A stretch of DNA of 18,212 nucleotides from Candidatus Eiseniibacteriota bacterium. GTDB lineage: Bacteria; Eisenbacteria; RBG-16-71-46. Position 1 is the first letter of the stretch. Each line of letters starts with the position of its first letter. Positions 1,169-18,212 of this stretch are shown here, piece after piece. A program made the position numbers and the translations under genes. The notes under the pieces were generated by a model. It did no database searches and was not told where the DNA came from. It saw only the letters and a program-made list of their open reading frames with translations. The stretch lies in contig JANLOX010000416.1 of NCBI GenBank assembly GCA_031366795.1, positions 1 to 18,212 of the forward strand, given 5' to 3'.

Positions 1169-1223
1169 GACACCTCCATCTTGATCCGCATTAGTTAGCC
1201 CTGGTGCCCGCCTTGGGTCTTGG

Positions 1224-1548: not shown

Positions 1549-1578
1549 ACCTGACCATTTGGGTCGGAGGTCACCACG

Positions 1579-1902
1579 ATGCCGAAGAAGTCTGCACCCC
1601 CAGCACCATACCCGCCTGAGCTTCGTCGCCGGCTAATCGAGTTGGTTCGTGCGGGCCAGACGCCCGAGGAACTGGCGAAGAAGTTCGAACCCACGTCGCA
1701 GTCGATACGGAACTGGGTCCGCCAGGCCGATCTCGACGCCGGTAAGCGCACGGATGGGCTGACGACGGAAGAGCGAGCGGAACTGGTCCAGCTTCGTCGC
1801 GAAGTTCGAACGCTGCGTGAAGAGCGAGAAATACTGAAAACAGCCGCGGCCTGGTTCGCGCAGGAGACGCAGTCGACTCCGAACAAGCGTTCGGGTTCAT
1901 GA
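1579..1902 (+). CDS. IS3-family transposase OrfA (HTH plus leucine zipper), 107 aa
   Basis: YPPELRRRLIELVRAG...LAKKF...SIRNWVRQ HTH and the ELVQLRREVRTLREEREILK zipper; GGAGG SD upstream. Confidence 0.95.
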   Translation: MPKKSAPPAPYPPELRRRLIELVRAGQTPEELAKKFEPTSQSIRNWVRQADLDAGKRTDGLTTEERAELVQLRREVRTLREEREILKTAAAWFAQETQSTPNKRSGS

Positions 1903-2810
1903 GCGCCCACCAGGCCGAACACCGGATCACCACGATGTGCCGTCTGTTGGGCTTCTCTCCCAGCGGATACTACGCGTACAAGAAGCGGAAACCTTCGGCA
2001 CGAGCGCGAGCGAACGGGCAACTGCTCGCACGCATGCGCACGATCCACGTGAAGTCGCGTGAGACCTATGGTGCGCCGCGAATGCACGCCGAGCTCAAGG
2101 AAGAGGGGCTTGCGGTCGGACGCAACCGCATTGCTCGACTGATGCGGCAAGCAGGGCTCGTCGGCGCGAGCCGTCGCAAGGGATGTTGGACCACGCGTCG
2201 TGACAAGAACGCGCAGCCTGCGCCCGATCTCGTCCGCAGGGAGTTCATGGCGGACGCACCGGACCGTTTGTGGGTCGCCGACATCACCTACATCCCGACG
2301 TGGACGGGATTCCTGTTCCTGTCGGTGGTCCTCGACGTGTTCAGCCGGCGAATCGTCGGCTGGGCGATGGCGAATCACCTTCGGACGGAGTTGATCCTCG
2401 AGGCATTGGAGATGGCGCTGCACCGGCGTCGCCCGCAGGACGTGATCCATCATTCGGATCAGGGCTGCCAGTACACGTCGATCGCATTCGGCTCGCGCTG
2501 TCGCGAAGCCGGCGTGCGGCCGTCGATGGGATCGGTGGGTGACTGCTTCGACAACGCCATGTGCGAATCGTTCTTCGCCACACTCGAGTGCGAGCTGCTG
2601 GTGAAGCACCGCTTCCGTACTCAGGCCGAGGCGGTGCCGGTCACGTTCGAATTCATCGAGGGCTGGTACAACACGCAGCGTCGTCACTCGTCGCTGGGAC
2701 AAATCTCGCCTATCGCGTTCGAAAGGAGGTACGCTGCCGCGCGTGAGGCCGGGTCGCTTGAAAACGGCTTCCAAGGATGCCCCCAGAACAGCGATCATGC
2801 TCCGGCATGA
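1899..2810 (+). CDS. IS3-family transposase OrfB (DDE integrase core), 303 aa
   Basis: YGAPRMHAEL, WVADITY (D), HHSDQGCQY (D), DNAMCESFF (E), WYNTQRRHSSLG; ATGA overlap with orfA. Confidence 0.96.
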   Translation: MSAHQAEHRITTMCRLLGFSPSGYYAYKKRKPSARARANGQLLARMRTIHVKSRETYGAPRMHAELKEEGLAVGRNRIARLMRQAGLVGASRRKGCWTTRRDKNAQPAPDLVRREFMADAPDRLWVADITYIPTWTGFLFLSVVLDVFSRRIVGWAMANHLRTELILEALEMALHRRRPQDVIHHSDQGCQYTSIAFGSRCREAGVRPSMGSVGDCFDNAMCESFFATLECELLVKHRFRTQAEAVPVTFEFIEGWYNTQRRHSSLGQISPIAFERRYAAAREAGSLENGFQGCPQNSDHAPA

Positions 2811-2880
2811 GTCCAAGGTCGGGGGCTGGCGACGCGAAACTGCGTCTCGCACGGCCGCCGATCAACCGCAGTCCTCACCC

Positions 2881-2904
2881 GTCCACCGAATCGGGGCAAC
2901 TCCA
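2881..2904 (-). repeat. IS right inverted repeat
   Basis: GTCCACCGAATCGGGGCAACTCCA, followed directly by the ATC duplication. Confidence 0.95.
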
Positions 2905-3323
2905 ATCGCCACGATCGCCGGGTATATCGGATTCCAGTGCAAGAGCAGTAGTGGCGGGAATACGAGTACGGGCGCCGCCAATGCCAGTTTGTGGAAGCGA
3001 TGCCGCATGTGACGCTGCTTCGCCGCCGGCATGCGCACCGTGACGCGGCGGGTGAGTGCATCGTAGAGCACCAGCCCCACGCCCCCGATCGCAAAGCTGA
3101 AGATCAAGCTCTCGAGGTCGAAGCCTGTGCGCCGGGCGAGCTCGAACAGGCTGGGTGGAGACCAGTAGGCCGGGACGAACAGGGGCTCGGTGAGCCCGAA
3201 CGGCATGGTGAGCAAGCTCGCACGCAGCATGACCCGACGCCTGGCGGGAATTGCGAGATAGAGCCCGAGCCAGGGAATCAGGAACGCGCTCGACCAGAAG
3301 AGCCAAACGTAGTGATCGGGCAT
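2905..3323 (-). pseudogene. 5' part of the IS-disrupted lycopene cyclase domain-containing membrane protein (238 aa when reconstructed)
   Basis: MPDHYVWLFWSSAFLIPWLGLY...TEPLFVPAYWSPPSLF...GFDLESLIFSFAIGG...WNPIYPAIVA, hydrophobic and multi-TM. The start at ATG 3323 is inferred; the upstream extension in the ORF track overlaps the neighbouring gene. Confidence 0.88.
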
Positions 3324-3402
3324 GGTCAGACTCACCACAGGGTCGAGGCAGGGGAATCGAACTTCCTCGTCACGGCGATCGCGAATCGTCCAGCATCGCG
3401 AT

Positions 3403-3996
3403 TCACGATCCTCCCGTCGCTTGCGATAGCGACCGCACACCTCCAAAGCGAGGAATGCAACCGGGGGTGATCGCAGCATACCGCGCATACGCCTCGCCGA
3501 ATGCCGCAGCCGCTTCGCGCTCCTCGCGACGCGTGAGCTTCATATACATGATGACCAGAATGGGGAACATCACCAGCGTGACGAGGGTGGGCCATTGGAG
3601 CAGGAATCCCAGCATGATGGTGATGAATCCGGCGTACTGCGGATGGCGCACGCGAGCGTAGGGCCCCTGAGTGGCGAGCGTGGCACTGCGCTGCGCCTGG
3701 TACAACACGCGCCACGCTGACCCGATGAGGAGAACTCCACCGAATACGAGCACGTTGCTCAAGATATGGAGTGGGTTGAGGTGTGGATCACCCTTCCACC
3801 CAATAACCGTGTAGAGCAAGTGACCGGCGTCGTGGGATAACAGATCCACGCCTGGTAGCCGCTTGGCGAGCCAGCCAGAGAGCAGATAGATCGCAAGGGG
3901 AAAGTCGTACATCTCGGTGAAGAGTGCCACCAGAAACGTTGAGAACGCGCCAAACGAACGCCAGTCACGCGCGGTGCGCAGTTTCGCAAAGCTGAA
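3403..3996 (-). pseudogene. Isoprenylcysteine carboxyl methyltransferase (ICMT/Ste14) family membrane protein, 5'-truncated
   Basis: FSFAKLRTARDWRSFGAFSTFLVALFTEMY...LATQGPYARVRHPQY...REE...FGEAYARY. The frame upstream of FSF is the alternative frame of the DUF2933 gene and has no SD or first TM helix. Confidence 0.8.
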
Positions 3997-4172
3997 TGGA
4001 ACAAGTATAGGAGGAGGCAGAGCAGTAGGAGCACAAATGGCAGCGCCTCGAACAGGTGCGCGCGATGCTTCGTGAACAGAAGAAACACGGCGATCCCAGC
4101 AAAGCCGATCCACGCCCAGCCGGAAGCTGACCGAAACCACGGTCTTGCGGGCTCTGTAGAAGGCTCGTTCAT
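3996..4172 (-). pseudogene. DUF2933-like small membrane protein, 3'-truncated; reads on out of frame to a stop at 3759
   Basis: Strong SD (GGAGGAGG). WFRSASGWAWIGFAGIAVFLLFTKHRAHLFEALPFVLLLLCLLLYLFH matches the EHRAH...LP.LLLL.CPL.H.F pattern as recalled; the His/Gly tail and native stop are missing. Confidence 0.78.
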
Positions 4173-4301
4173 GGCTGCCTCCTCCGTGGCAAGTTCTCTC
4201 GCGTGTATCTATGTCCCCGCATTGGAACCGAGTCGTACAGTCGCTTCAGGGCGCAGGCTCCGCCCCTTCGCAGCACGCTGCCCCGCCACGCGCGGTCTTC
4301 T

Positions 4302-4685
4302 CTACGACTTTTCCAATTGATGGGCGCTGACGGTGCCGCAACACCCTCCTGAGCTGTCTACGACGGGCAAGCTCGTGGCGCGATGCTCATGGAGTTTGCG
4401 GCGCGCCTCCTCAACCGGCTCATCTGCGCCACAACACACCGACGCGGGTCGCATAATCTCTTCGACTCGCACTTCGGACGCATTGCGGTCATCAGCCGCC
4501 ATGCCGCAACACACGTCGCGCTCGGTGACGACACCTACCAGCTTGAGGCGTTCTGTACTCTCTACCACCGGCGTGCAGCCGCAGCCTGACTCACGCATCG
4601 CTCGCGCAGCGTGTGCCGCCGTGTCTTGCGGCGTACAGCACGCAGATGCTTCGATTGGTTTCATCACATCACTACAACAACTCAT
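4302..4685 (-). CDS. Stand-alone CBS-pair protein, unusually Cys-rich (12 Cys in 127 aa)
   Basis: CBS motifs AARAMRE...PVVE...LVGVVTERD and VEEIMR...ARRKLHEH...LPVVD...GTVS; AAGGAGG SD. Confidence 0.9.
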   Translation of the reverse strand: MSCCSDVMKPIEASACCTPQDTAAHAARAMRESGCGCTPVVESTERLKLVGVVTERDVCCGMAADDRNASEVRVEEIMRPASVCCGADEPVEEARRKLHEHRATSLPVVDSSGGCCGTVSAHQLEKS

Positions 4686-4783
4686 TGTCTGTGCCTCCTT
4701 TGGTTATTTCGATCGCACGTCGCTATCGTCATTGCGCAACAGGGACAGCCCATCTATCGGACACGCAGCAACGCAAGCCCTTC

Positions 4784-5314
4784 CTACATCTTCATTTTCA
4801 TCTGGCTCCCCTTACTGCCCGACATCATCTTCGACATGGCATCAAGGTGTGTGTGCACGCTGGCTACCAAGGTGGAGACTTTCTTCGCATCTGGCGTGGC
4901 CGCCTGAACCTCTTGCTCCAGTGCCGTAAGCTGGGTGTTCAGTTCGGCCTGATGGGTCTCCATTTGCTGCATCATACCGCTCAGTTTGGTCTGCATTTCA
5001 GCGCTCATGGCCTGTACGTGTTCTTGATGATGCTGTTTCATCTGATCAAAACTGCGCCGCATCTCGGTCACTGCGGCGCGGGCGAATTCCACATCGACTG
5101 AGCTGGCGCGAGCCGTTTGCTCCTGCAGGGCCTTCGCAAACACAGTCATGTTCTGACAGTAAGCCATGGCTAGGGCGTGATGCGGCTCATCGGCCATCAT
5201 CATGTGATCGTGGGACATCTCATGTTTGCCTGGTGTTGCGGATTGCGATGCCGTTGCGCTAAGGACTCCGAATGACAGGGTCAAGAGGAGCGTTGAAAGT
5301 AGTCTTGTCTTCAT
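4784..5314 (-). CDS. Secreted Met/His-rich all-helical protein of unknown function (candidate periplasmic Cu/Ag-binding protein), 176 aa
   Basis: Sec-type signal MKTRLLSTLLLTLSFGVLSATA; 20 Met and 11 His counted by hand; amphipathic helices; AAGGAG SD. Confidence 0.85.
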   Translation of the reverse strand: MKTRLLSTLLLTLSFGVLSATASQSATPGKHEMSHDHMMMADEPHHALAMAYCQNMTVFAKALQEQTARASSVDVEFARAAVTEMRRSFDQMKQHHQEHVQAMSAEMQTKLSGMMQQMETHQAELNTQLTALEQEVQAATPDAKKVSTLVASVHTHLDAMSKMMSGSKGSQMKMKM

Positions 5315-5598
5315 TGTGATTCTCCTTTAGGAGGGTGTGATATGTGACTCGTCAAATTCTGTTCCGCCAAGACTAAAGAACCTATTGCATTACCGCTGGA
5401 ACTCCTCAGCGCGCTATGTGTTCATGACACTAGGCAACTCAAGTCCCTCCTATCGATCGCCTCGCCTCTTCGCGAGCAACCCATGTTGCCCATGAGTCAT
5501 CCCGCCGCGGGCAAAGGTCACCGCTGTGCACATCGTTCGCGTGAAACACCTAGCGCCCGCCGCCGGGATCATGGACTGTAGGTAACCGGCCCGCGCTC

Positions 5599-6312
5599 AT
5601 GAAGTCGGCCAAACCGAAACTCCTTATCGGCGAATGCAGCCACCGCTGGTTCGGGATTGTTTCGGTGCTGGTCAAAGTCGAGGAGGGTTGCCAGTTGCAT
5701 CTGCCGCGCGCGTGCTATGACCCATTGATCCGGCAGACCCTGCCGCAGGAAACCTTTCGCCGCCTGGTCCTCACCCCGGCCGGCCTTGCATGCGGCGATC
5801 GGGTGCTTGACTTGGGATGTGGAACAGGTTCGCACGCCACCATCATCAAGCGGGTCCACCCGGACGCCTGCGTGGTGGGGATTGACGACGATCCGGAAGC
5901 GATCGCGCTGGCGAAAGCGCGCGCCGCCAGGGAGTCGGTTGCCATCGTATTTCGGCACGGCAACGCGACCCAGTTGCCCTTCGAGGGTCAATCCTTCGAC
6001 CACGTCTTCTCCTCCTTCTTGTTTCATCACCTGGATCGGGCCGGCAAGTGTCGTACCCTCAGCGAAATCCTTCGCATCCTGCGAATGGGCGGGCACCTGC
6101 ACCTTGTCGACTTCGCGCGGCCGCAGGGCTGGCGCATGCGCCTGGCGTTTGTCTTCATTCGCCTGACACATCAGCACGCATCACTGGACGACAATGTCCG
6201 TGGAATGCTGCCCACACTTTTGCGCGAAGCGGGATTTACCAGCCCAATGCAGGAAGTGCGTGCACAGTCGCCCTTCGGAACGATCGGGATACTGCACGCC
6301 GGCAAGGAATGA
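5599..6312 (+). CDS. Class I SAM-dependent methyltransferase (UbiE/Methyltransf_11-like); start uncertain
   Basis: VLDLGCGTG motif I, VVGID, GNATQLPFEGQSFDHVFSSFLFHHL, EILRILRMGG. No SD before 5599. Confidence 0.85.
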   Translation: MKSAKPKLLIGECSHRWFGIVSVLVKVEEGCQLHLPRACYDPLIRQTLPQETFRRLVLTPAGLACGDRVLDLGCGTGSHATIIKRVHPDACVVGIDDDPEAIALAKARAARESVAIVFRHGNATQLPFEGQSFDHVFSSFLFHHLDRAGKCRTLSEILRILRMGGHLHLVDFARPQGWRMRLAFVFIRLTHQHASLDDNVRGMLPTLLREAGFTSPMQEVRAQSPFGTIGILHAGKE

Positions 6313-6459
6313 ATCGAAACCCGCCGCACCCCCACCCGCAAGTCCTCTCTCTTGATGTTCGCCTCGATCCTGCGCCGCCCGCGCGATCCCCACAGTGACT
6401 GGTCGTACAGCTCATCGGCGAACTTCAGCGTGAGCGGGGGGCGCGACCTTCAGCGGTCG

Positions 6460-6822
6460 CTACTTCGTCGCCATTGCCGCCATATCCTGACAAGCCTTCG
6501 CGCCCTGCCGACATGCATCCGCACATCGACGCATCGTCGCATCGTCACTGAACTGTTCGCAGTCCTTGGCGCACGTTTCGCACACCTTGGCGCACACCCC
6601 ACAGACGTGAACCTGATGCGCTGAGCCCCGCACCATAAAGTCCGCCGCAGTGGCGCAGATCCTCGCGCAATCGAGCAGCAATGTGATGTGCTCGGGCGTT
6701 GCGTGCGCTCCGCCGAGCCCAAGGCAGTGAGACACAGAGGACGCGCATGCCTGCTCACACGACCGACAGGACTCGATACAGGCTTCCACCTTTGGGTTAT
6801 CCATCGCCATGTCCTGGTGCAT
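6460..6822 (-). CDS. Four-helix-bundle copper-storage protein (DUF326, Csp3-like, cytoplasmic), 120 aa
   Basis: Repeated CxxxC/CxxC helices with 15 Cys (CIESCRSCEQAC, DCARIC, CGVCAKVCETCAKDC, CADAC...C); no signal peptide. The GGGAG SD favours ATG 6822 over the ORF-track start at 6927. Confidence 0.92.
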   Translation of the reverse strand: MHQDMAMDNPKVEACIESCRSCEQACASSVSHCLGLGGAHATPEHITLLLDCARICATAADFMVRGSAHQVHVCGVCAKVCETCAKDCEQFSDDATMRRCADACRQGAKACQDMAAMATK

Positions 6823-6919
6823 TGGTTTCATCTCCCTTTTGTAACGAGGTTGAACCTCACGGCCATGGGGCCAGCGAGTACGTGCCACGCGGCCCTGCAA
6901 AGGAACAGAGAGCGTGCGG

Positions 6920-7492
6920 CTAAGCACACTTCCGATACCACCGACAGAGCCAGTCCTTCATGGTGACGATCTCCCGTTGCTGAGATTGCTCAATCTGGTG
7001 ACACATATCGCGCAACTCAGTGTGCTTGCTGCGGCGCTTGCACGCTTTCGCCTGTCGCACTGCCGCGGCGTGGTGTCGAATCATCATCTGCAGGAACTCC
7101 TTTTCGAAGGCTTCTCCCTTCAGCCTCTCGAGGGGCCGCATGCTCGCCATCATTGTGGGTGGCTCATGGGTGCGTCCATACCATTGCTTGAGCCAGGCCT
7201 GCATCTGCTCAATCTCAGCGCGCTGGGCAACGGCAATGGTGTCGCCGAGGCTTCCCAGTTCGGTGTGGATGGCCTGTGCGTGCAGGAGTTCGCTCATGTG
7301 CACCGCCATGGCGTGATGGTCGATCATTCCTTCCAGGAAGCGGATCTCGAACCGGCTCGCCGATGGCGTCCCTGCCTCCCGGGTGGCGACGTGTTCGTGC
7401 GGCCCCTGGGCCAACGCAGCGGAGTCCAACATGAGAAGAGCGAGCGCCGCGGGGAAGCCGGCGCGGAGACGGGAAATAAGGGACCCATGCAT
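6920..7492 (-). CDS. DUF305 (CopM-like) exported ferritin-like metal-binding protein, 190 aa
   Basis: Signal peptide ending ALA-Q; two repeats of F..xMIxHH..A...QxxEIxxMxxWLxxWY; GGAGG SD. Confidence 0.92.
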   Translation of the reverse strand: MHGSLISRLRAGFPAALALLMLDSAALAQGPHEHVATREAGTPSASRFEIRFLEGMIDHHAMAVHMSELLHAQAIHTELGSLGDTIAVAQRAEIEQMQAWLKQWYGRTHEPPTMMASMRPLERLKGEAFEKEFLQMMIRHHAAAVRQAKACKRRSKHTELRDMCHQIEQSQQREIVTMKDWLCRWYRKCA

Positions 7493-7738
7493 CAGCCAAG
7501 CCCTCCGTGACTACACGCTAATTTATCCAAACATTTAAGCGCGCATTCTTGGTCCGCCGCAGCTATCATGCCACGCTGGCTTAGCGTCGAATGTCCCCCC
7601 CAACTCCATGTGGCTATGCGTACTCGTGCTTCGTGGTTGGCGAACCGCCGCATCCGGGGGCTGCAGCCTCAGGCGCGTAGACGGAACAACTTACATACCT
7701 GGGTGGTGTAAACTTCAAGACATAACCTCTGGAGAAAT

Positions 7739-9110
7739 TCAGTAGCCACCAGATCTCGACGTGAGACTCCGTAGGCGAGGCACGTTTCCGATTAACCGAA
7801 ACCGAAGTCAAGCTCATGGCGGCTGCGGCGATTGTTGGGCTGAGGAGAACCCCCAAGAGGGGTACAGCACGCCGGCGGCAACCGGCAGACCCAGCATGTT
7901 GTAGATGAGCGCGAAGAATAGATTCTGGCGGATGTTGCCCATCGTGGCGCAACTCAGATGGCGGGCACGAACAATTCCGCGTAGGCCCCTTTTCATGAGC
8001 GTCACCCCGGCGCTCTCCATCGCCACATCCGTCTCCGTGCCCATCGCGATTCCGATCTGTGCCTGGGCCAGCGCCGGTGCGTCGTTGATCCCGTCTCCAG
8101 CCATCGCGCCGACACGTCCCTCGCCGTGTAGGCGCTTCACCACCTCGACCTGCTGATCCGGCAGCACTTCTACGATCACATCATCGATGCCGAGTCGGCG
8201 TGCGACGGCCTCAGCAGCCGTACGGCTGTCGCCGGTGAGCATGACCACGCGCATGCGTTCGCCGTGAGTTGCCGGATGGCCTCCGGGGTCGTTTCCTTGA
8301 TGGGATCCGCCACTCCGACAAGACCAGCGAAAGCGCCGTCAACCACCACGAACATGACGGTCTCGCCCTCTGACCTCATCCGCTCGGCGTCATCGACCGC
8401 AGTCGGCGCAATGCCCAGATCTTCCAAGAGGGCTTGATTTCCAAAAACAACGCCGTGGCCCTCCACCCGGCCCGTGACACCACGCCCAGTTCGGGACTGG
8501 AATTCCTCGACCGGAACGAAGGTCACGCCGCGCTCAAGCGCGCCGGCCACGATGGCACCGGCCAGCGGATGCTCGCTGCCGCGTTCGAGGCTGGCCGTCA
8601 AGCGCAGGAGTCGCGCCTCGTCCCATCCGGCAAGCGGCTTCCCCGCGACGAGTCTGGGTTTGCCTTCGGTGAGCGTGCCGGTCTTGTCGATGACGAGCGT
8701 GTCGGCCGTGCTGAGCGTCTCGAACGCTTCAGCATTTCGGAACAGCACGCCGATCGTTGCTCCCTTCCCGGTCGCGAGCCCGAGCGCGCAAAGGCAAGCG
8801 ACGATGAGCACCGCCACGGCATTGACGAGGCCATGCGTGGCTCCAGCCCGAAGCTGGCCCACCGATGGAGGTGGCGATGGCGGCGAGCACCACGACGGGC
8901 ACGAAGATGCCCGACACCTTGTCCGCGAGCTTCTGGATCGGCGCACGGCTGCGCTGGGCCTCGGCCACCATGCGGACGATTCGCGCTAGGAGCATATCCG
9001 CCCCGGTCTTTTCCGCGCGCACGATGAGCGAGCCTGTTCCGTTCACGGTTGCGCCGACCACCTTGGCCCCTGGCCCCCTTCTCGACGGGAATCGGCTCGC
9101 TAGATGACAC
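7739..9110 (-). pseudogene. copA: Cu(I)-translocating P1B-1 ATPase pseudogene (5'-truncated, multiple frameshifts)
   Basis: Motifs in order across three frames: [33 protein letters not shown](L)[63 protein letters not shown]. Everything upstream of the TGE loop is absent. Confidence 0.93.
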
Positions 9111-9129
9111 CCGATGTCGTGTGAGCGAT

Positions 9130-9504
9130 CTATTGGACTACGAGCTCGCCCGTGAACATGCCCATGCCGCAGGCGAACGCCATCCGTCCACCCGATTGAG
9201 CAGGTAAGGAGACCCGAACGGTCTTGTTCAGCGGCAAGTCGACGGTCTTGTCGATCGCCTTGAAGACGGCCTGCGTGGCGCAGGTGTTCTCCGTCTTCCG
9301 AGTGAGCAGAAGGACGATCGGCACGCCCTTCTTCACTGAAATGGTGGCGGGCACGAACCCCTCCTCCGTGACCGACACCTTCACTTGCTGCGACTTCGGG
9401 TGGTGGCCTGAATGGACCACGCCCTTCGGATGTGCGAACACCGCGCTTGTCACGAACAGATCCACCACGATACTCACCGCCATCGCTTTCGTTCTTAAGC
9501 TCAT
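9130..9504 (-). CDS. Cupredoxin-fold copper-binding protein (CupA-like) with N-terminal signal or anchor, 124 aa
   Basis: [30 protein letters not shown] and C-terminal [18 protein letters not shown] 6 nt before ATG 9504. Confidence 0.9.
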
Positions 9505-9553
9505 CACACGCTCCTTGCTTGGGTCTGGAGATCAACATCGCTGACAAGAACGG

Positions 9554-10057
9554 TTACTGCGCGCCCGTAACGGTCTTGATGGTTTTCAAGACTCCATCGA
9601 GCTTCGCGGCCTCCGCCTGCGTACCGCTGAGATTGCCGGCGTCGCCGAGCTCGTCGAGCTTGGTGGCCGAGGCCTTGACCTGCTCCACCATGCCCTTGAG
9701 CTTCGGTGCTACCGCCGGAGTTGCAGCGCCAGCCCTGTCCACCAATGCGACCACGAGGTCTCGGATCCCAAACGCGAGATGGTGAACGTCTTTCAGCTGA
9801 CCATTCTGAATCGCGGCGGACAGCTTACCCTGTTCACCCTGGACCTGTGCCCAGATCTCAGGCACCGTGCCGGCGGGGGTCACGGTAGGACCGCTCTCAT
9901 CGTGCTCTACTGTTCCACTACCCGGGGCGGCCGGAGCCGGCGGCTGCTGTGCCACCGGCGGGGTGGCCGCTTCGTCTTTCTTCTGCGAACAGCCGAACGC
10001 GGAAATCGCTGCGATCAACGCGATAGCCAGAATCCACCGTTGGGTTAAGGTTCTCAT
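9554..10057 (-). CDS. Lipoprotein of unknown function with a predicted helical bundle and VHH motif, 167 aa
   Basis: CAGGAGG SD before ATG 10057; lipobox AFG-C23; Pro/Ala linker followed by amphipathic helices containing DVHHLAFGIRDLV. Confidence 0.85.
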   Translation of the reverse strand: MRTLTQRWILAIALIAAISAFGCSQKKDEAATPPVAQQPPAPAAPGSGTVEHDESGPTVTPAGTVPEIWAQVQGEQGKLSAAIQNGQLKDVHHLAFGIRDLVVALVDRAGAATPAVAPKLKGMVEQVKASATKLDELGDAGNLSGTQAEAAKLDGVLKTIKTVTGAQ

Positions 10058-10313
10058 TTGCGCCTCCTGTGTTGAGAGTGTGCGATGTGACGGCAATCTG
10101 ACGTGGGTACTGCCCACAATTCCTTCGCGTTTCCGACAAGTACTTCTCGGCGAATGGCCGCTCCCATGCCGACGGCCGGTATCAGCGCGAGCACGATGAG
10201 AAGGGGAACAACCTCGTCGACACCCTTCCGCGAAAGGAGGAACATTGACATGAGGATGCCGTGGTGGCGCGCCACGCTCCACTGAGTTTATCGGCCGCGA
10301 CACGATCTCCGGC

Positions 10314-10496
10314 TCACTTGGCCGCGATCGTGCCCCCGAGCATGTGCATGCCGCAGATGTAGTTCAGTGTGTCCGTCACGCCCCCAGGGACTTCGATGCG
10401 TACCGCCTGGTTGAGGGGCAGCGCGAGGCGCTCATTGAGCGCAGGGATCAGAATCTCCTTCGCACTGGTCTGGTCAGTCTGGCGTGTGACGACCAT
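10314..10496 (-). pseudogene. C-terminal half of a second CupA-like cupredoxin
   Basis: VVTRQTDQTSAKEI...LPLNQAVRIEV...YICGMHMLGGTI aligns by eye with the C-terminal half of 9130..9504. The signal peptide and first strands are missing. Confidence 0.8.
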
Positions 10497-10511
10497 GGAT
10501 CTCCCACCCGC

Positions 10512-11417
10512 TTACACGACATGGGCGGGCGCCTGGCCACACTCGGCGGCACCGTCCCCCCGCTCGACCTGAATGGTCGTGTGCTCGATTCCGAAGCGAG
10601 AGTGAAGCTCCCCGCAAATCCGAGCCATGACATCGTCTGTTATGACTCTCTCGGGCACGATCAGATGCACCGTAAGAGCGTGCTCCGTCGTGCTCATTGC
10701 CCAAACGTGGAGATCGTGCACGGCAACCACTCCCGGCAGCTCTTCGAGGTAACGCTGAATCCCCGGAAGGTCCGTGCCCTCCGGAACGGCGTCCATGGCG
10801 AGACGCAGTGATTCCTTCAGCAGGCTCCACGTTCCGAGCACGATGACTGCTCCGACGCCCAGGCTGACGACCGGGTCGAGCCATGACTTCCCAGTGAATA
10901 GGATCGCGATGCCGGCGAGTACGACGCCCAGCGACACCACCGCGTCCGATAGCATGTGCTGAAATGCGCCGCGGATATTGATGTCGTGGTCTCTCCCCGA
11001 CATGAATAGCAGCGCCGCCAGACCGTTGACCACAATGCCAATCGCCGCCACCACCATCACGGTCTGGCCTGCGACTGCGTGCGGGTGGCGAAGCCGTTGA
11101 AGCGCCTCCCACGAGATCCCACCCACTGCGACGAGTAACAGGATCGCGTTGCCGAGCGACGCAAGGATCGAGGCGCGCCTCATTCCATAGGTGTGCCGGG
11201 CGGTGGGTGGCCTTTGCCCAAGGATGAGAGCACCCCACGATAGACCCAGGCCCAGGACATCTCCCGTGTTGTGCCCTGCATCAGATAGCAGGGCGAGCGA
11301 GTGCGCGCGCAACCCATACACGACCTCCACGACAACAAACAGGAGGTTTAGACCGATTCCGATCGCGAATGATCTCGAGGTCGCGGGGGCTGTGTGGCTA
11401 TGGCCGTGTGCGTGCAT
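10512..11417 (-). CDS. czcD: Cation diffusion facilitator transporter (CzcD/ZitB type), 301 aa
   Basis: His-rich N-terminus, SLALLSDAGHNTGD (HxxxD), NIRGAFQHMLSD (HxxxD), VHDLHVW, HTTIQVE; GAGG SD. Confidence 0.93.
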   Translation of the reverse strand: MHAHGHSHTAPATSRSFAIGIGLNLLFVVVEVVYGLRAHSLALLSDAGHNTGDVLGLGLSWGALILGQRPPTARHTYGMRRASILASLGNAILLLVAVGGISWEALQRLRHPHAVAGQTVMVVAAIGIVVNGLAALLFMSGRDHDINIRGAFQHMLSDAVVSLGVVLAGIAILFTGKSWLDPVVSLGVGAVIVLGTWSLLKESLRLAMDAVPEGTDLPGIQRYLEELPGVVAVHDLHVWAMSTTEHALTVHLIVPERVITDDVMARICGELHSRFGIEHTTIQVERGDGAAECGQAPAHVV

Positions 11418-11444: not shown

Positions 11445-14400
11445 TCACTCGGTAACGCTCTCAATCCGCGAAGGAGTGGCCGTTCGGTGAACTAGCCGGT
11501 AGAAGGCAGGCAGAACGACAAGCGTCAGGAGCGTAGACGATACGATTCCGCCGATCACCACCGTCGCGAGCGGCCGTTGTACTTCCGCCCCAGTTCCCGT
11601 GGCGAACGCCATGGGGACAAATCCAAACGAAGCGACCAGCGCGGTCATGAGAATCGGCCGCAGCCGTCGCGTGCAGCCATCCAGGATGGCGAGATCGACG
11701 TCCAGCCCATCCGCGACCCGTTGCCGGACAAAGGACAGTAAAACGAGGCCATTGAGGACGGCCACGCCCGAGAGCGCAATGAAGCCGATTCCTGCGGTGA
11801 TCGAGAACGGCATGTGGCGCCCCGCCAGCGCGAGCACGCCCCCGGTCAGTGCCAGCGGGACGCCACTGAACACCACGAGCGCGTCGCGCAGTGAGCCGAA
11901 GGCGAGAACGAGGAACAAGAGAACCAGCGCGAGCGCCATCGGCACGACGATCGCGAGCCGGTTGCGAGCAGTCACCAGATTCTCGAACTGGCCACCCCAA
12001 CCCAGCCAGTAGCCAGCGGGGATCGGGACCTTCGCGTCGACCACCCGCCGGACATCGGCAACAAATGAAGCAAGGTCGCGACCCCGGACATTGGCCTGCA
12101 CCACGACGCGCCGCTTGCCGTTCTCGCGGCTGACCTGGTTCGGCCCTTCCTCGAGCCGGATGTGGGCGACGGCGCTCAAGGGCACGAACTCAATGCGTGA
12201 TTCAGCGAGTGCCCCGGAGCCGTCATGGCCATGGCCCGCGATCGGAATCGGCAACTGTTCGAGTGCCGCCACATCGCGCCTCGATTGCTCAGGCAAGCGG
12301 ACGACGATAGGAAAACGCCGGTCGCCCGTGAACAACTCCCCCGCCTGCGTGCCACTGAGGGCCGTTCGCACAACGTTCTGAACGTCCGCGAGATTGAGTC
12401 CGTAGCGAGCCACCGCACGGCGGTCGATGTCGATTGCGAGTGTCGGAAGCCCAGTCACCTGCTCGACCTTGACATCGGTTGCGCCCGGCACGGCTCGCAC
12501 GATGCGCGCGATGCGATTCGCAGCGGTCAGCATCGTGTCGAGGTCATCCCCGAACACCTTGATCGCGAGATCGCTTCGCACCCCGGCGATCAGCTCGTTG
12601 AAGCGCATCTGGATGGGCTGAGTGAACTCGTACGCGTTCCCCGGGAGCACCGAGAGCCGCCGCTCCATCTCCTCCACCAGTTCGGCCTTCGGTCGCTTGG
12701 GATCCGGCCATTGCCGGCGGGGCTTCATGATCACGTAGGTATCGCCAGTGCTGATGGGCATGGGGTCGTTCGCGACCTCGGCGGTCCCCAGGCGCGCGAA
12801 GACTTCTCGCACCTCAGGCATGGCGGCGATCACGGCTTCGACTCGGTGTTGCATGATCACGGCCTGATCCACACTGATGCCGGGCATGCGTACGGGTTGG
12901 ATGAGGACATCCTGCTCATCGAGCGTCGGCACGAATTCGCCACCGAGACGCGTGGCGAGGATTGCGCACAGCACCAGCAGCACAGCGGTGCCTGCCAGCA
13001 CCGACGTTCGGTGAGCCAGCGACCACCGCAGCACCGGCACGTAGACATGGCGGACGCGACGCACGACCGGGCTCTCCGTTTCGGCGAGCCGTCCGCGGAG
13101 CAGCAGCGCGGCCATGGCCGGCACGAACGTGAATGCGAGCAACAGCGCCCCGGTAAGCGCCAGCAGCACCACCTCGGCGAGCGGGCGGAACATTTTCCCC
13201 TCGACCCCGGTGAGCGTAAGGATCGGGAGGTAGACGACGAGGATGATGGCGGTACCGAACAAGGTCGGCCGGGCCACCTCCTGCGCGCTGGAGTAGCTGT
13301 GGGCAAGTCGCTCAGGGAGGGTGAGCACGCGGCCCACTTCCTGTTGGTGCTGGCTCAGTCGACGCAGGATGTTCTCGACCATCACCACCGCACCGTCGAC
13401 GATGATGCCGAAGTCGATCGCTCCGAGGCTGAGCAGGTTGGCGCTCACGTGGCCTTGCACCATTCCCGTCACCGCGAACAGCATCGAGAGTGGGATCACC
13501 AACGCCACGATAAGGGCGCCCACCCAGTTCCCGAGCAGCGCGAACAGCACGGCGATTACGAGGATCGCGCCCTCGAGCAGATTCTTGCGCACCGTCTCAA
13601 GCGTGGCGTCGACGAGTCGTGTCCGATCGTAGACGGGCCTCGCCACGATCCCGGGCGGTAGCGAGCGGTTGACCACACTCAGGCGTTCGCCGACCCGTTT
13701 CGCAACGGCGCGGCTGTTCTCGCCGAACAACATGATGGCCGTGCCGATGACCGTCTCGGATCCGCGGCTGGTCGCCGCACCGGTGCGCAGTTCCTGGCCC
13801 AGTCCGACCGTGGCAACATCGCCAACATGGATCGGCACGCCGCTTCGAGTCGCGACGACGACCTGCTCGATGTCGTCTGGCGACGACAGTCGCCCATCGG
13901 TATGAACGAGGTACTGCTCGCCCTTGTGGGGCAGGAACCCTGCGCCGACAGCCTGGTTGTTGAGTTCCACAGCAAGCAGCACATCGCCCAGTGTCAGGCC
14001 GTAAGCCCGCAACCGAGCGGGATCGGGCTGTACGTCGTACTGCTTCCTATACCCGCCGATGCTGTTGACCTCGGTTACACCGGGCACGGTCCGGATCTGC
14101 GGCTTGATGATCCAGTCTTGGATCTCGCGAAGGTCAGTGACGGTGTAGGTTGTGCCGTCAACCTTGCGGGCATCGGGCCGCGCTTCGACCTCCCAGTGGA
14201 AGATCTCGCCGAGCCCGGTCGCGATCGGACCCATCTTGGGCTCGGCAATGCCGCGCGGAAGGCTCTCCCGCGCGTCTTGCAGACGTTCATTCACGAGTTG
14301 CCGTGCAAAATAGATGTTGGTGCCGTCGTGGAACACCACCGTCACCTGTGAGAGTCCGTAGCGCGACAGCGATCGAGTTTCCGCGAGGCCGGGCAGGCCC

Positions 14401-14657
14401 GCCATCGCGGTTTCGATCGGATACGTGACCTGTCGCTCAATTTCGAGCGGCGGCAAGCCCTCGACGATCGTGTTGACCTGAACCTGCACATTGGTGATGT
14501 CCGGCACGGCGTCGATGGGAAGACGACGGAGACTGAACAGTCCAAGTGCCGCCACAGCCGCAGTCGCGGCCATCACCGCCCAGCGATGGACGACCGAGAA
14601 GCGGAGTGTCCGTTCGAGAAATGTGCGGGCTTCCGGCAAGCGGGTGTCAGTCCTCAT
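11445..14657 (-). CDS. czcA: CusA/CzcA-family heavy-metal efflux RND permease, CzcA-type, 1070 aa
   Basis: LPIDAVPDITNVQVQVNT, TM4 AIDFGIIVDGAVVMVEN (DFG...DG...E pattern of the divalent-cation pumps), RLRPILMTA, GAEVQRPLATVVIGG. Confidence 0.95.
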   Translation of the reverse strand: MRTDTRLPEARTFLERTLRFSVVHRWAVMAATAAVAALGLFSLRRLPIDAVPDITNVQVQVNTIVEGLPPLEIERQVTYPIETAMAGLPGLAETRSLSRYGLSQVTVVFHDGTNIYFARQLVNERLQDARESLPRGIAEPKMGPIATGLGEIFHWEVEARPDARKVDGTTYTVTDLREIQDWIIKPQIRTVPGVTEVNSIGGYRKQYDVQPDPARLRAYGLTLGDVLLAVELNNQAVGAGFLPHKGEQYLVHTDGRLSSPDDIEQVVVATRSGVPIHVGDVATVGLGQELRTGAATSRGSETVIGTAIMLFGENSRAVAKRVGERLSVVNRSLPPGIVARPVYDRTRLVDATLETVRKNLLEGAILVIAVLFALLGNWVGALIVALVIPLSMLFAVTGMVQGHVSANLLSLGAIDFGIIVDGAVVMVENILRRLSQHQQEVGRVLTLPERLAHSYSSAQEVARPTLFGTAIILVVYLPILTLTGVEGKMFRPLAEVVLLALTGALLLAFTFVPAMAALLLRGRLAETESPVVRRVRHVYVPVLRWSLAHRTSVLAGTAVLLVLCAILATRLGGEFVPTLDEQDVLIQPVRMPGISVDQAVIMQHRVEAVIAAMPEVREVFARLGTAEVANDPMPISTGDTYVIMKPRRQWPDPKRPKAELVEEMERRLSVLPGNAYEFTQPIQMRFNELIAGVRSDLAIKVFGDDLDTMLTAANRIARIVRAVPGATDVKVEQVTGLPTLAIDIDRRAVARYGLNLADVQNVVRTALSGTQAGELFTGDRRFPIVVRLPEQSRRDVAALEQLPIPIAGHGHDGSGALAESRIEFVPLSAVAHIRLEEGPNQVSRENGKRRVVVQANVRGRDLASFVADVRRVVDAKVPIPAGYWLGWGGQFENLVTARNRLAIVVPMALALVLLFLVLAFGSLRDALVVFSGVPLALTGGVLALAGRHMPFSITAGIGFIALSGVAVLNGLVLLSFVRQRVADGLDVDLAILDGCTRRLRPILMTALVASFGFVPMAFATGTGAEVQRPLATVVIGGIVSSTLLTLVVLPAFYRLVHRTATPSRIESVTE

Positions 14658-15600
14658 CGCCGCCCGCTTTCTTTTCGAGCTCCGCCTTCAGCCAGAAGGC
14701 ATTCCGCGTAACGATGCGCGCGCCGCGTTCGAGTCCCGAAACAATCTCCGTCGTCGTTCCGTCGCTTCGGCCCAGCGTGACGGGTTGGACCTCGAACCCG
14801 GACGAGTCGGCGCGGAACACGGCGGAGCCCGTGCCGACGCGGACAATTGCGTCCTCGGGTACGGCAACCGGCACCGTGACGCGTTCGATCACGACCACTG
14901 CGGTCACGAGCCGTCCGGGCTGCCAGCGGCCATCGGGATTCGGAAGCACGACGCGCGCGTAGGTGGTGCGCGTATCCACGTCGAGCAGCGGCCCGACGTA
15001 GCTGATCGTGCCGGTCGCCGAGATCGCGGGCCCACCATCCGTCCGCACAAGGACGCGTTGGCCCCGGTGAATCCTGCCCAGGTGCTGCACATAGATTGGG
15101 AAGTCGAGCCACACGCTCGACAGGTCCGCGACCGTGTAAAGGACCGACGCAGGGTCTACTGCTGCTCCCGGGCTCGTTGGGCGAGCGACGATCGTTCCAC
15201 TCATCGGCGCGGAAACGATGTAGCCACTGAGGCTCTCGTTGCTCAGGATCTCGGCCAGTGGCTGGCCACGCGAGACGCGGCTGCCGAGCGCCGCGTTCAA
15301 TGTCGTCACGCGGCCTGGATAGGTTGGACGCACATCGACGCTGCGCTCGGCGTTTAACTTGATTTCGCCCGGCAACTCCAGCGTGACGTCGATCGGCTGC
15401 TCCCCCGACTTGCCGATGGTGATCCCGGCGCTGTCGACCGCCTCGGGTGACAGCGAGATGATTGCTCCGCCATGTGCTCCCATGCGCGGCGAAGCCTCGG
15501 GCTCTGCGACCTCGGCCGCCTGCTTCGCGCAGCCGGAAACGGCCAGTGCCAACGCGAACAGGACGGCTGTCACCAGAGTGGTTCGTTGTGGGCGGTTCAT
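14647..15600 (-). CDS. czcB: RND periplasmic adaptor (MFP), short CzcB-like lipoprotein, 317 aa
   Basis: GGAGG SD and ATGA overlap with the czcC stop; lipobox VSG-C; lipoyl halves, VADLSSVWL, G.ISYVGP.LD..TRT, AVPEDAI, EIVSGL. Confidence 0.92.
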   Translation of the reverse strand: MNRPQRTTLVTAVLFALALAVSGCAKQAAEVAEPEASPRMGAHGGAIISLSPEAVDSAGITIGKSGEQPIDVTLELPGEIKLNAERSVDVRPTYPGRVTTLNAALGSRVSRGQPLAEILSNESLSGYIVSAPMSGTIVARPTSPGAAVDPASVLYTVADLSSVWLDFPIYVQHLGRIHRGQRVLVRTDGGPAISATGTISYVGPLLDVDTRTTYARVVLPNPDGRWQPGRLVTAVVVIERVTVPVAVPEDAIVRVGTGSAVFRADSSGFEVQPVTLGRSDGTTTEIVSGLERGARIVTRNAFWLKAELEKKAGGDED

Positions 15601-16886
15601 CGCCCCTCCTTGGGGGTGAGAAGCCCAATGCCCGCCAGCAGCTCGAGCCGCAGTTGTGCTCGCAAGAGATCGGCCTGTGCATCGATGATGGCGAGCTCGG
15701 TTTCGAGCAGATTGGATTGTTCGGTAACGAGATCGGCGTAATTCGACCGACCGGTTCGATAGCCACGCAGCAATTCGTCGACGATCTGCGCCCGGGCAGG
15801 TAGGGCGCGAAGACGGAGGGTGTCGTAGCGAGCAGCGGCGGCCTTGACGCGCTCTGTTGCGGCGGCGAAGGCTACCTGTAGTTGCTGCTCCGTCGCCCGT
15901 CGTTCGGCGGTAGCCGCATCGAGATCGCGATGCGCCGCAGTGACACCGCCGTTCCCTCGGTTCCAGAGGGGAAGCGGCACTTCCGCTCCAATCAGGAATC
16001 CGGTGCCCGATACTTCTTCGAGGTGGCGCACGCCGCCCGACAACGTGAGGTCGGGCCTGCGAGCTGCTGCCGCCGCATGCACGCGGGCGGATGCGAGTGC
16101 TTCGGCAGCCGAGGCCCGAGTGAGCTCGGGGTGTTCCGAAAGCCGAGGCTGCGATCCCGCGGTGTCGCTGGGCACCACCTGATCCGACGTGACCAGGGAG
16201 TCGAACGTGGCAGTCACAGAGCCCCAGCCCAGCGCGAGCTCCTGCCGAGCGACAGTCAACTCCGACTCGGCGCGCTGCCGCTCCACCGCCTGCGTCGTCG
16301 CTCGACTCTCCGCACGGAGGATGTCCAGGCGTGGTGACGCGCCGGCCTGGAATCGCTCGGTCGCCGCATGGATGGCTTGCGCGGTGAGCGCTTCGCCTTC
16401 CTGCAGTCGTCCGAGTCGAGCCTGAAGCGACCACGCTGCAATGAATCGGTCGGCAGCCAGCGCCAAGCCTTCGCGCTCTACAGTGTTCGCCTCCGCACTC
16501 GCGAGCCTGGACTCCGCTTCGGCAGTGCCCGCGCGGGCGCTTCGGTCGCCTCCGATCTCGAGCACCTGGCTGATGGCCATCGTGGCCTCTCGACGGCTTC
16601 CTCCGAATTGCCCGCCAAAGTTCTCCTCCGTGGCGTTCAAGGTCGGATTCGGGCGACGGCCCGCGTCCGCGATCCGTGCGCGCGCCGCCTGAGCCCGCAG
16701 CCGGGCCGCCTGCAAGGTCGGCGCGTATCGGCTCGTGAGCCCGAGCGCTCGCTCCAGGGTCAGCGGACCGGTAACGGCAGCGATACTGTCCGGCAGAATC
16801 GGTGCTGCGATCGCCGTGGCCTGCAAAGACGTACTGGCCACAAGAATGACCGCGCAACGGCAGCCGGCTCTCGTGAGTGAGAGCAC
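15597..16886 (-). CDS. czcC: TolC-family outer-membrane factor (CzcC-like), 429 aa
   Basis: AAGGAG SD before the GTG; signal peptide; LTLERAL, PNPTL, two OEP repeats, PLPLWNRG, Y..G..NY.DL. Confidence 0.92.
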   Translation of the reverse strand: MLSLTRAGCRCAVILVASTSLQATAIAAPILPDSIAAVTGPLTLERALGLTSRYAPTLQAARLRAQAARARIADAGRRPNPTLNATEENFGGQFGGSRREATMAISQVLEIGGDRSARAGTAEAESRLASAEANTVEREGLALAADRFIAAWSLQARLGRLQEGEALTAQAIHAATERFQAGASPRLDILRAESRATTQAVERQRAESELTVARQELALGWGSVTATFDSLVTSDQVVPSDTAGSQPRLSEHPELTRASAAEALASARVHAAAAARRPDLTLSGGVRHLEEVSGTGFLIGAEVPLPLWNRGNGGVTAAHRDLDAATAERRATEQQLQVAFAAATERVKAAAARYDTLRLRALPARAQIVDELLRGYRTGRSNYADLVTEQSNLLETELAIIDAQADLLRAQLRLELLAGIGLLTPKEGR

Positions 16887-16891
16887 GGAAA

Positions 16892-16969
16892 GATCTCCTT
16901 TGAGCTGGGGGGCTGATCATGGGCACACGGGTCCGTGCGCCGGCTCAGATCCGGGCAGCTCGAGAGATC
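16892..16969 (-). promoter_or_regulatory. Predicted mRNA hairpin pairing the upstream-ORF stop region with the czcC Shine-Dalgarno sequence
   Basis: Inverted repeat arms (plus-strand text): GATCTC 16892-16897 with GAGATC 16964-16969, and GAGCTG 16902-16907 with CAGCTC 16956-16961; inner 7-bp stem at 16923-16940. Confidence 0.6.
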
Positions 16970-17348
16970 AACAGCGGAGAATTGGGAGTCGTCTTCCCGG
17001 AGGTTCGCCGGCCCAGAACAGCCGGCGCCCGACAACAGGAGCGGCAACGGCTGGTTCGCATGAAGGGACGTGCGGCCTAGATGTCATCAACGCAGTGCAC
17101 GTCGGGGGCGTGGTGCTGCATGAAGCGGTGAACACCTCGTCCCGACAGGGCCCACACTGGGCTGTCCCGGCCACGCCAATCGCTGCCGCAGATTCGCGCG
17201 CTGGCAGCTCCATGCATGCGCAGAATCCCGGCTCCAACCTCGCCACGCCGTCTGTGGAGATACAGACAGAACCGCCGGCCAGCGGAGGCATGACGATAAG
17301 CACTTGGAGGAGCGCGAGCAATCGGAAGAACCGCTTCGAAGCGGGCAT
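16968..17348 (-). CDS. Cys-rich small protein with N-terminal signal or TM segment (CzcI/DUF2946/CutF-like leader), 126 aa; start inferred
   Basis: MPASKRFFRLLALLQVLIVMPPLAGGSVC...FCAC...QCGPC...GEPPGRRLPILRC; 9 Cys; lies directly upstream of czcC. No clear SD. Confidence 0.7.
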   Translation of the reverse strand: MPASKRFFRLLALLQVLIVMPPLAGGSVCISTDGVARLEPGFCACMELPARESAAAIGVAGTAQCGPCRDEVFTASCSTTPPTCTALMTSRPHVPSCEPAVAAPVVGRRLFWAGEPPGRRLPILRC

Positions 17349-17444
17349 AGGCTCGCGACAGTCGCGGAAATGCTGGCCCGGGTCAAGCGCTTGGCGATGG
17401 CGATTGTCGCTCCTGCGCTGGATTCCATGAGCGGGTGCAACAAC

Positions 17445-17464
17445 ATTTCGCCATGTGACGAAAT
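17445..17464. promoter_or_regulatory. Imperfect 20-bp palindrome, possible operator
   Basis: ATTTCGCCATGTGACGAAAT is self-complementary at 16 of 20 positions and sits in a locally AT-richer patch about 100 bp upstream of the leader ORF. Confidence 0.3.
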
Positions 17465-17729
17465 CACCAAATGAGGAACGCATATACGCCACTTTGAGCT
17501 GGCTGTGAGCGCCGTCGGGGACCTGATTAGTCGCTGAATCCCCAAGCGAAGCCGGTGCCTGATCTCCTGCACGGCGCGCTCGACGGGACCCGGCAGGGAT
17601 CGCCGACCGCTTCTCGATCAGGCCGAACGTCCTGCTCGCTGAGTTAAACGATCCTGCCGCTCGGCCCGAGTCAGGCTCGCACGAATAGGCGAGGACTCTT
17701 GCGGAGCTTCTCCGCACACATGGAAAGGA

Positions 17730-18212
17730 TCACCGCTCGGAGACCTCAGGTTGTTCGAATCGCCCGAATCTTAGCGCGAGGGTCGGCAGCACGAGGAGGC
17801 TGAGCAGCGTGGACGTCACGAGTCCGCCGAGGATGACAATCGCCATCGGACCCTCGATCTCTCGCCCTGGCGCTCCGCTGCCGATGGCGAGCGGCAACAG
17901 CCCCAGAGCGGTGACCAGTGCGGTCATCACGATCGGTGCGAAGCGCTCAGCCGCCCCGCGGAGCGCCGCTTCCGGTCCCCAGGCCATGCCCTCGTGCGCC
18001 ACGATGTGATCGTAGTGCGAGATGAGCATGATCGAGTTACGGGTGCTGATGCCGAACAGCGTGACGAAACCGACCAGTGAACCGACAGAGAGCCATCCGC
18101 CGGTGAGGAATACAGCGAGCACGCCACCGACCAACGCGAACGGCAAATTCGCTAGCACAAGTGCCAGGTTCCGCCCACTCCGGAACACGATTGCCAGGAG
18201 CAGCACGATCCC
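17730..18212 (-). CDS. C-terminus of a second CusA/CzcA-family RND permease (partial; enters from the right edge)
   Basis: Frame open to the edge: NLPFALVGGV, SVGSLVGFVTLFGISTRNSIMLISHY, ERFAPIVMTALVT, GREIEGPMAIVILGGL. Confidence 0.93.
   Translation of the reverse strand, partial: GIVLLLAIVFRSGRNLALVLANLPFALVGGVLAVFLTGGWLSVGSLVGFVTLFGISTRNSIMLISHYDHIVAHEGMAWGPEAALRGAAERFAPIVMTALVTALGLLPLAIGSGAPGREIEGPMAIVILGGLVTSTLLSLLVLPTLALRFGRFEQPEVSER

Follow-up and report, generated by a model that had tools for sequence, protein, structure and literature searches.

What does a small cysteine-rich open reading frame (ORF) do directly ahead of a heavy-metal efflux operon, when its stop codon lies in RNA that can pair with the downstream gene's ribosome-binding site? 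The question is raised by contig JANLOX010000416.1 (assembly GCA_031366795.1) of Candidatus Eiseniibacteriota bacterium, of which we analysed a stretch of 18,212 nucleotides (the window; features lie on its minus strand unless a plus sign is given). The leader ORF (16968..17348) encodes 126 amino acids, beginning MPASKRFF and ending GEPPGRRLPILRC before a TGA stop at 16970-16968, and 81 nt separate this stop from the GTG start (16886) of a czcC-like outer membrane factor gene (15597..16886; Pfam OEP, E = 6e-34), the presumed regulated gene. An earlier note, made from the letters alone, had described a 126-residue Cys-rich ORF with a CxC and a CxxC motif (C43xC45 and C65xxC68) stopping 81 nt ahead of czcC, and both coordinates and translation bear this out; among homologues, the ratio of nonsynonymous to synonymous variation (pN/pS) is below 1 in all segments of the ORF. 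Our analysis points to a cis-acting leader similar to CutF, a reading that we consider probable, if only modestly so: a ribosome dwelling on the last codons or at termination would free the Shine-Dalgarno (SD) sequence of czcC, and metal on the Cys core would raise this dwell.

Folding of the intergenic RNA pairs the czcC SD in both the minimum free energy and the centroid structure, where GAUCUCU (16969-16963) pairs with GGAGAUC (16898-16892) and GAGCUG (16961-16956) with CAGCUC (16907-16902). The predicted hairpin comprises an anti-SD arm that starts inside the stop codon (arm A, 16956..16969), an inner hairpin (16913..16948) made of a CUGA/UCAG helix and an 8-bp stem (16941-16922), and a 3' arm (16892..16907) holding the SD, AAGGAG (16900-16895). 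The earlier note had foreseen that an arm overlapping the stop would pair with the SD, which the folding supports, but four SD bases (GGAG) are paired rather than GAG alone, the inner stem has 8 bp instead of 7, and the middle segment it had read as GAUC/GAUC gives way to the CUGA/UCAG helix. The structure is more stable than most shuffled sequences when 131 nt are folded (z = -2.39; 4 of 200 shuffles as stable) and more so with 171 nt (z = -3.35; 0 of 200). An intrinsic terminator was considered and rejected, there being no conserved U-run after the hairpin.

The pairing is maintained while the sequence changes. Before counting, we dropped near-duplicate rows (L009, L012, L014, L016, L018, L020, L028 and L029), one leader cut by a contig end (L110) and one weak match with stops (L107). 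Among 21 close loci, the inner stem is paired in 93% of cells with 2 pairs changed on both sides; scored by column, 5 pairs are changed on both sides, a modest signal that 128 of 500 shuffles also reach, and 17 individual cells are changed on both sides, which none of 500 shuffles reach. In a duplex test, the first 18 nt counted from the stop were paired with each locus's own SD region and compared with permuted partners (L035, L047 and L094, which have no downstream start, were left out, and four held-out starts were set by hand). In 24 loci the true partners reached -16.1 kcal/mol and the permuted ones -11.3 +/- 0.55 kcal/mol; the corresponding values were -17.3 and -11.9 +/- 0.48 kcal/mol in 38 held-out loci, and -16.1 and -11.4 kcal/mol in the 28 non-redundant held-out loci, each with 0 of 10,000 permutations as strong, counts that overstate certainty because related loci are not independent. 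In every locus set, pairing with the SD is strongest between +3 and +14, counted from the stop. A duplex of -14 kcal/mol or stronger is present in 79% of held-out leaders; of 68 ordinary gene pairs taken from the genome, which average -10.7 kcal/mol, 19% have one. The covariation of the two arms that the earlier note proposed to look for in homologous intergenic regions is thus present, with distant sequences changing and pairing kept, also in the held-out set; the conserved leader ORF, the stop-anchored, SD-sequestering hairpin with covarying arms and the CutF-like logic that it had put forward are all supported.

Selection on the leader protein is strongest at the very end. We counted tails in 69 genome-derived leaders, leaving out loci found through the tail pattern itself. 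The pattern [LI][RL]x-stop closes 65 of the 69 as against 13 of 677 background ORFs, a count to be read with the fact that our leader profiles include the tail, which biases recovery of tail-bearing members; among matches of profile hidden Markov models (HMMs) that end short of the tail, six of eight still end L-[RL]-x. Leucine stands at position -3 in 63 of the 69 and arginine at -2 in 59, and stop-anchored pN/pS falls to 0.16 at -3 and 0.39 at -2 while staying at about 1 elsewhere. The Arg codon itself varies synonymously (CGC, CGT, CGG, CGA, AGG). An earlier pN/pS of 0.02 for the tail was discarded as circular, since 12 of the 16 loci behind it came from a tail-pattern scan, and was replaced by the value from the 69 genome-derived loci. 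The stop is TGA in 66 leaders and TAG in 3, compared with TGA in 302 of the 677 background ORFs, a preference that could reflect release factor 2 (RF2) or pairing of the stop codon itself. In the window, the sequence I-L-R-C-UGA (16968..16982) is therefore our candidate arrest motif at the stop.

Where would a ribosome have to sit to open the SD? We modelled this with an assumed footprint that reaches, from the first base of the P-site, 15 nt in the upstream and 14 nt in the downstream direction. For ribosome-free RNA, the model gives a median cost of 9.3 kcal/mol to open the SD; the median stays at 8.4-8.9 kcal/mol while the P-site occupies any of codons -11 to -6 (8.5 kcal/mol at -10) and drops to 6.2-5.5 kcal/mol at codons -3 to -1. 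With the P-site at -1, 16 of 24 loci show a fall in cost that exceeds 2 kcal/mol; at -10, 3 of 24 do. At the window locus, the modelled transition shifts with footprint size: it comes at codon -3 for 12 nt, -4 for 14 nt and -5 for 17 nt. The earlier proposal that a ribosome paused at the end of the ORF melts the anti-SD arm therefore stands, within this model, for the last three to four codons; it does not stand for the Pro-rich part, and a ribosome stalled at P116-P117 would not free the czcC SD.

Upstream of this tail, the protein is probably exported and carries a candidate metal site. Its N-terminus (residues 1-26; 17271..17348) is basic and then hydrophobic, with a net charge of +3, a best 11-residue hydropathy of 2.9 and an AlphaFold helix at residues 5-24, in agreement with the signal-like start described before; in 75 of 76 scored family proteins, the first conserved Cys has a hydrophobic 11-mer ahead of it. 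The Cys core (C29...E39...C43xC45...C65GPC68xD70; 17139..17264) is a candidate metal-binding site judging from its conservation: in alignments A1, A4 and A5, residues C29, C68 and D70 do not vary, and conservation of C45 and C65 is 90% or higher. Between the core and the tail lies a linker (17013..17132) whose sequence drifts almost neutrally (pN/pS 0.74-0.79) and whose length is kept, with 58 residues from C68 to the C-terminus in the window protein, 56-59 in 20 close leaders, 63-68 in 20 distant leaders and 60-70 in 35 of 37 scored held-out leaders. Constant length combined with drifting sequence is the behaviour expected of a ruler that spans the distance from the Cys core to the ribosome.

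The start of the leader transcript appears to lie at or close to its start codon. A putative sigma70-type -35 box, TTGACC (17381..17386), shows a conserved spacing: 62 of 79 leaders have TTGAC 34-41 nt upstream of an in-frame start, as do 7 of 706 control windows. A putative, weak -10 box, GACTGT (17358..17363), placed by a 17-nt spacer, would end up 9 nt before the ATG. An SD-like word ahead of the leader start is present in just 3 of the 62 leaders with TTGAC. Because the TTGAC spacing is conserved and SD-like words are rare, we take ATG 17348 as the start and infer a leaderless or nearly leaderless mRNA that begins there. A 249-residue version from GTG 17717, as called in the database (P0037 cluster), was rejected, both homology and the conserved -35 spacing favouring ATG 17348.

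Taken as a mechanism, these elements suggest the following course. The nearly leaderless mRNA would begin at the leader ATG, and in mRNA free of ribosomes the covarying post-stop arm is predicted to pair with the czcC SD and keep czcC translation low. The leader would be exported co-translationally; by the time its last codons are being translated, the Cys core, which lies 58-70 residues upstream, would have left the exit tunnel and stand at or beyond the translocon. The nascent I-L-R-C next to the UGA may slow the last elongation steps or termination, and metal on the Cys core may prolong the dwell, as proposed for CutF. With the P-site on codons -3 to -1, the modelled geometry has the anti-SD arm covered and the SD free, and czcCBA(D) would be translated when periplasmic metal rises, a direction of regulation that we suggest because the target is an efflux pump.

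Several rival explanations have to be weighed against this reading. In the version of the earlier note, the switch is an elongation stall at the Pro-rich GEPPG, in the style of CutF, that melts the hairpin. CutF is reported to need its PPP; the prolines at -11/-10 recur in 19 and 20 of the 21 close loci; and pN/pS is 0.44 over GEPPG to -6, at loci partly chosen by the tail pattern. The CutF prolines, however, lie 2 residues from the stop, whereas the P116-P117 pair (codons -11 and -10; 16998..17003) lies 30 nt upstream of the arm, where the footprint model leaves the SD closed. It is also a subfamily-specific feature: among the 69 leaders, Pro-Pro (PP) stands at exactly -11/-10 in 10, within the last 15 residues in 28, and within the last 6 in none, leaving 41 homologues without PP in the last 15 residues. 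When the conservation of the noted PP-to-LRC tail is checked, then, the L-R-x at the stop holds and the PP does not, and a stall in the Pro-rich part, 10-11 codons from the stop, becomes highly unlikely. The prolines are probably not the switch, although PP may contribute from inside the tunnel in the close subfamily. The absence of a canonical RAPP tail, already remarked upon, extends to all 75 family proteins scanned, and neither RAPP nor RGPP occurs in the 69 genome-derived leaders. Read-through of the UGA as selenocysteine or Trp, aided by the hairpin and fusing the leader to czcC, might explain why UGA is so much more frequent than in background ORFs, why a stem-loop directly follows the stop, and why the 81-nt gap keeps czcC in frame at the window locus. 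We find it hardly credible, given that an in-frame TGA follows 17 codons further on in the window, that the gap length is divisible by three at just 9 of the 21 close loci, that three homologues use TAG, and that an Rfam search of 16700-17800 returned nothing at E up to 1.

The other two rivals share the RNA evidence with the reading that we prefer. A metal-independent translational coupling or secretion monitoring, in which a finishing or export-delayed ribosome melts the hairpin and the Cys core is structural, is compatible with all of it, as any terminating ribosome melts the same arm and the RNA data alone therefore fit plain coupling; signal-bearing upstream ORFs (uORFs) that arrest at a stop codon are, moreover, known as candidate monitoring substrates. 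We nevertheless regard it as unlikely: it leaves unexplained the near-invariant Cys ligands, the fixed distance from Cys to stop and the restriction to metal efflux genes, and pure coupling has no need of a conserved L-R. Quite unlikely, in our view, is a periplasmic protein of the CzcI type that acts in trans on the pump, the hairpin serving only to couple the synthesis of leader and CzcC. Cupriavidus CzcI and CzcI2 precede czcC, and one study reports both as pump quenchers and czcI2 as leaderless too (PMC10127602). Against a trans-acting protein stand a linker that is nearly neutral, the concentration of selection on the residues at the stop, the lack of a match of the leader to any NCBIfam or Pfam model, and a predicted structure with no confident fold past the signal helix (predicted local distance difference test 61, predicted template modelling score 0.26), a weak model being weak evidence.

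Other observations, together with the fit of plain coupling and the description of CzcI, a studied leader ahead of czcCBA, as a pump quencher, count against the stop-proximal dwell that we propose. The tail motif is short and its last residue varies (C in 30, I in 17 and N in 14 of the 69 leaders). None of 300 synonymous recodings of its codons pairs with the SD as well as the native ones do, and CTT is used at -3 in 18 of 41 leaders; because the tail codons out-pair their recodings, part of the tail conservation may be at the RNA level, and these codons (in the window, those of I-L-R-C) may form a second, weaker anti-SD (arm B). Arm B showed no covariation with its own SD, with 2828 and 1080 of 10,000 permutations as strong. 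An RNAalifold consensus favouring an arm in the ILR codons was rejected after that arm failed the covariation test, RNAalifold having preferred it owing to the two registers in which close homologues pair their post-stop arm. Of the six control windows run alongside arm A, five gave no clear signal, and the one at -45 to -30 did better than its permutations among the held-out loci (43 of 10,000), which indicates that relatedness and base composition contribute a little. At some loci (L026, L036 and L039) the arm is weak or the opening slight. Finally, the footprint in the opening model is an assumed one, and stalling, metal sensing and a purely cis action of the leader are suggested by analogy.

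The closest relatives in design are known metal-sensing leaders. CutF of Rhodobacter capsulatus (PMC8456105, PMC9973294, 10.1101/2025.02.05.636593) is likewise a small uORF with a Cys motif, its signal sequence corresponding to the signal-like N-terminus of the window leader, and the CutF-like set shares with the window leader a stem-loop that shields the next SD and a gap below 100 nt. CutF, however, ends PPPRL, with C73 located 45 residues from the end, in contrast to the conserved L-R-x-stop and the 58-70 residues of the window family, and similarity between CutF and the window leader is not detectable by HMM. The CutF-like survey names OEP/CusC/CzcC/SilC genes first among the neighbours, ahead of TonB-like ones (Ozturk et al. 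2023, PMC9973294), so a Czc-type target does not mark an undescribed variant, as had been suggested in the earlier note. The window leader falls within the filters of that survey (fewer than 150 residues, here 126; a PP; a same-strand neighbour; and a gap below 1000 nt, here 81 nt), whose PP filter would keep 28 of the 69 homologues and remove 41. The survey also places CzcI in one cluster and states that it has no C-terminal proline motif (PMC9973294). CzcI and CzcI2 of Cupriavidus metallidurans, small exported ORFs directly ahead of czcCBA, resemble the window leader, which is probably exported too, and czcI2 is leaderless, as predicted here (PMC10127602); CzcI is listed in the CutF-like clusters, yet it is described as a periplasmic pump quencher, and Pfam and NCBIfam scans, which did not include a direct comparison with CzcI, gave no sequence link to the window family.

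CruR (Bp2923, DUF2946) of Bordetella pertussis (PMC9426467) is also a uORF that combines a CxxC with an export signal and keeps a constant distance from its Cys to a C-terminal motif; the window leader carries a corresponding CxxC (C65GPC68), a putative export signal and a similarly kept distance. CruR has a RAPP motif, a 45-residue spacing, a 162-nt gap, Rho-dependent termination and a metal response that shuts off an importer; the window leader, by contrast, has no RAPP, an SD-sequestering hairpin and an exporter as its target. The CxxC lies 58 residues from the C-terminus, and mostly 60-70 in distant members, rather than the approximately 45 of CruR, and 47 residues from the PP in the window protein only. 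Searched up to E = 1, the DUF2946 model (PF11162) matched none of the 41 members in A4 and none of the 35 in A5, and nothing at the leader locus in the genome search, and the leader falls outside DUF2946 by motif as well as by HMM; a weak match below the cut-off at 4035-4295 (+) (E 0.135, with an internal TGA) is probably due to chance. Arrest at a stop codon is known from NSP-stop, NAP-stop and DGMK-stop uORFs (10.1101/2023.09.02.556018), which have conserved stop-adjacent residues and the stop codon in the A-site when stalled, as we predict for the window leader; they differ in their motifs and in lying upstream of secA/secDF or metabolic genes, and the accessible text reports no metal-sensor role for them. 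In the literature that we searched, as far as it was accessible, an L-R-x-stop leader ahead of metal pumps is not described, although the list and logos of the CutF-like survey may hold such a cluster.

The operon behind the leader continues with a czcB-like adaptor (14647..15600; HlyD_D23, TIGR01730), a CzcA/ZneA-type heavy-metal pump of the resistance-nodulation-division (RND) type (CusA/CzcA family; 11445..14657; TIGR00914, 1487 bits) and a CDF transporter (CzcD/ZitB-like, from family scans; 10512..11417). The closest solved structure to the pump is ZneA, with which it has an AIDFG segment in common, and the metal at the window locus is most likely of the Zn/Co/Cd type. This arrangement recurs across the family: the gene after the leader encodes an OEP protein in 19 of 21 distant loci (one of the others is incomplete and one lacks a detected start) and in 31 of 34 held-out loci (two incomplete, one CDF), and a relative of the window RND pump follows further downstream in all 20 stretches examined. 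Twelve of these relatives carry the ZneA-like AIDFG segment and seven an MSLGG-type segment closer to CusA, the motif not being captured in one, so the ligand may differ between leader loci. A small hairpin, GCUCUC/GAGAGC, lies over the first czcC codons in the close subfamily (16867..16884; 97.6% of cells paired, no two-sided changes), where a GCxC word is also frequent in the CzcC signal peptide.

Just upstream of the leader promoter, at the contig edge, lies the end of a second RND pump gene (17730-18212), and the operon is set in a metal and stress island (731-11417) that contains CDF, CBS, methyltransferase and Usp genes, together with CopM/DUF305 (6920-7492) and a Csp1-like copper storage protein (6460-6927). 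A heavy-metal P1B-type ATPase at 7814-9547 is split into fragments in several frames (actuator, hydrolase and C-terminal) and is apparently decayed; at its upstream end, a 125-residue ORF (9130-9507) is one that, by eye, we take to be cupredoxin-like. No two-component regulator was found among the window ORFs scanned. Elsewhere in the same genome (G000), two leader-like ORFs have RAPP tails, one ending LRAPPASA (contig C18, about 7620-8228 (+)) and one ending SRAPPAA (contig C253, minus strand); the former is followed right behind its stop by CTCCTC and then by a TolC-like ORF, as judged by eye. In one other genome (G103, contig C24), two family leaders on a single contig (15094-15495 and 21135-21512) head tandem TolC operons, and in another (G165, contig C111) the leaders L023 and L103 face opposite ways, with a TolC gene ahead of one and a CDF gene ahead of the other.

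How widely is the leader spread? We found 36 homologues at 40-74% identity. A first profile matched 47 cluster representatives, one being a repetitive false match and one the same ORF read from the upstream GTG, and successive profiles placed members in 9, then 37, then 64 of 206 Ca. Eisenbacteria genomes. Pfam and NCBIfam scans of the leader ORF and of alignments A4 and A5 returned no meaningful family, and a tblastn search of two distant members against plasmids gave no matches. The clusters nearest to the leader by language model are nameless or of the DUF2946 (23% of members), DUF6769, DUF6660 and DUF8199 types, which we treat as leads only. Weak matches ending VILLT, TILLI or VVLLH hint at a wider spread of the class. 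One partial member of the leader cluster (P0121) is labelled as coming from a Gaiellaceae metagenome-assembled genome, which could be due to misbinning or transfer.

The overall switch design has already been published for CutF-like leaders, which limits the surprise. What sets the window family apart is where its conservation lies: the two characterised metal-sensing leaders, CutF and CruR, rely on prolines at the C-terminus, and PP served as a filter in the published survey, whereas this family, with the same anatomy, is most strongly conserved at the protein level in the L-R-x next to the stop, and its covarying anti-SD occupies precisely the stretch that a ribosome would cover during termination. 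We put forward only tentatively, as a possibility short of even chances, that it represents a separate, proline-independent class of sensors, in which L-R-x blocks RF2-dependent termination at UGA and is tuned by metal on a Cys core 60-70 residues away, across the membrane. Such a class would head metal-efflux operons in at least one phylum and would largely have been missed by surveys based on PP or RAPP. If the stalling proves true, L-R-x would be a new arrest motif, post-transcriptional metal sensing would extend to Zn/Co/Cd-type pumps, and proline-less leaders such as CzcI would gain a cis-acting reading.

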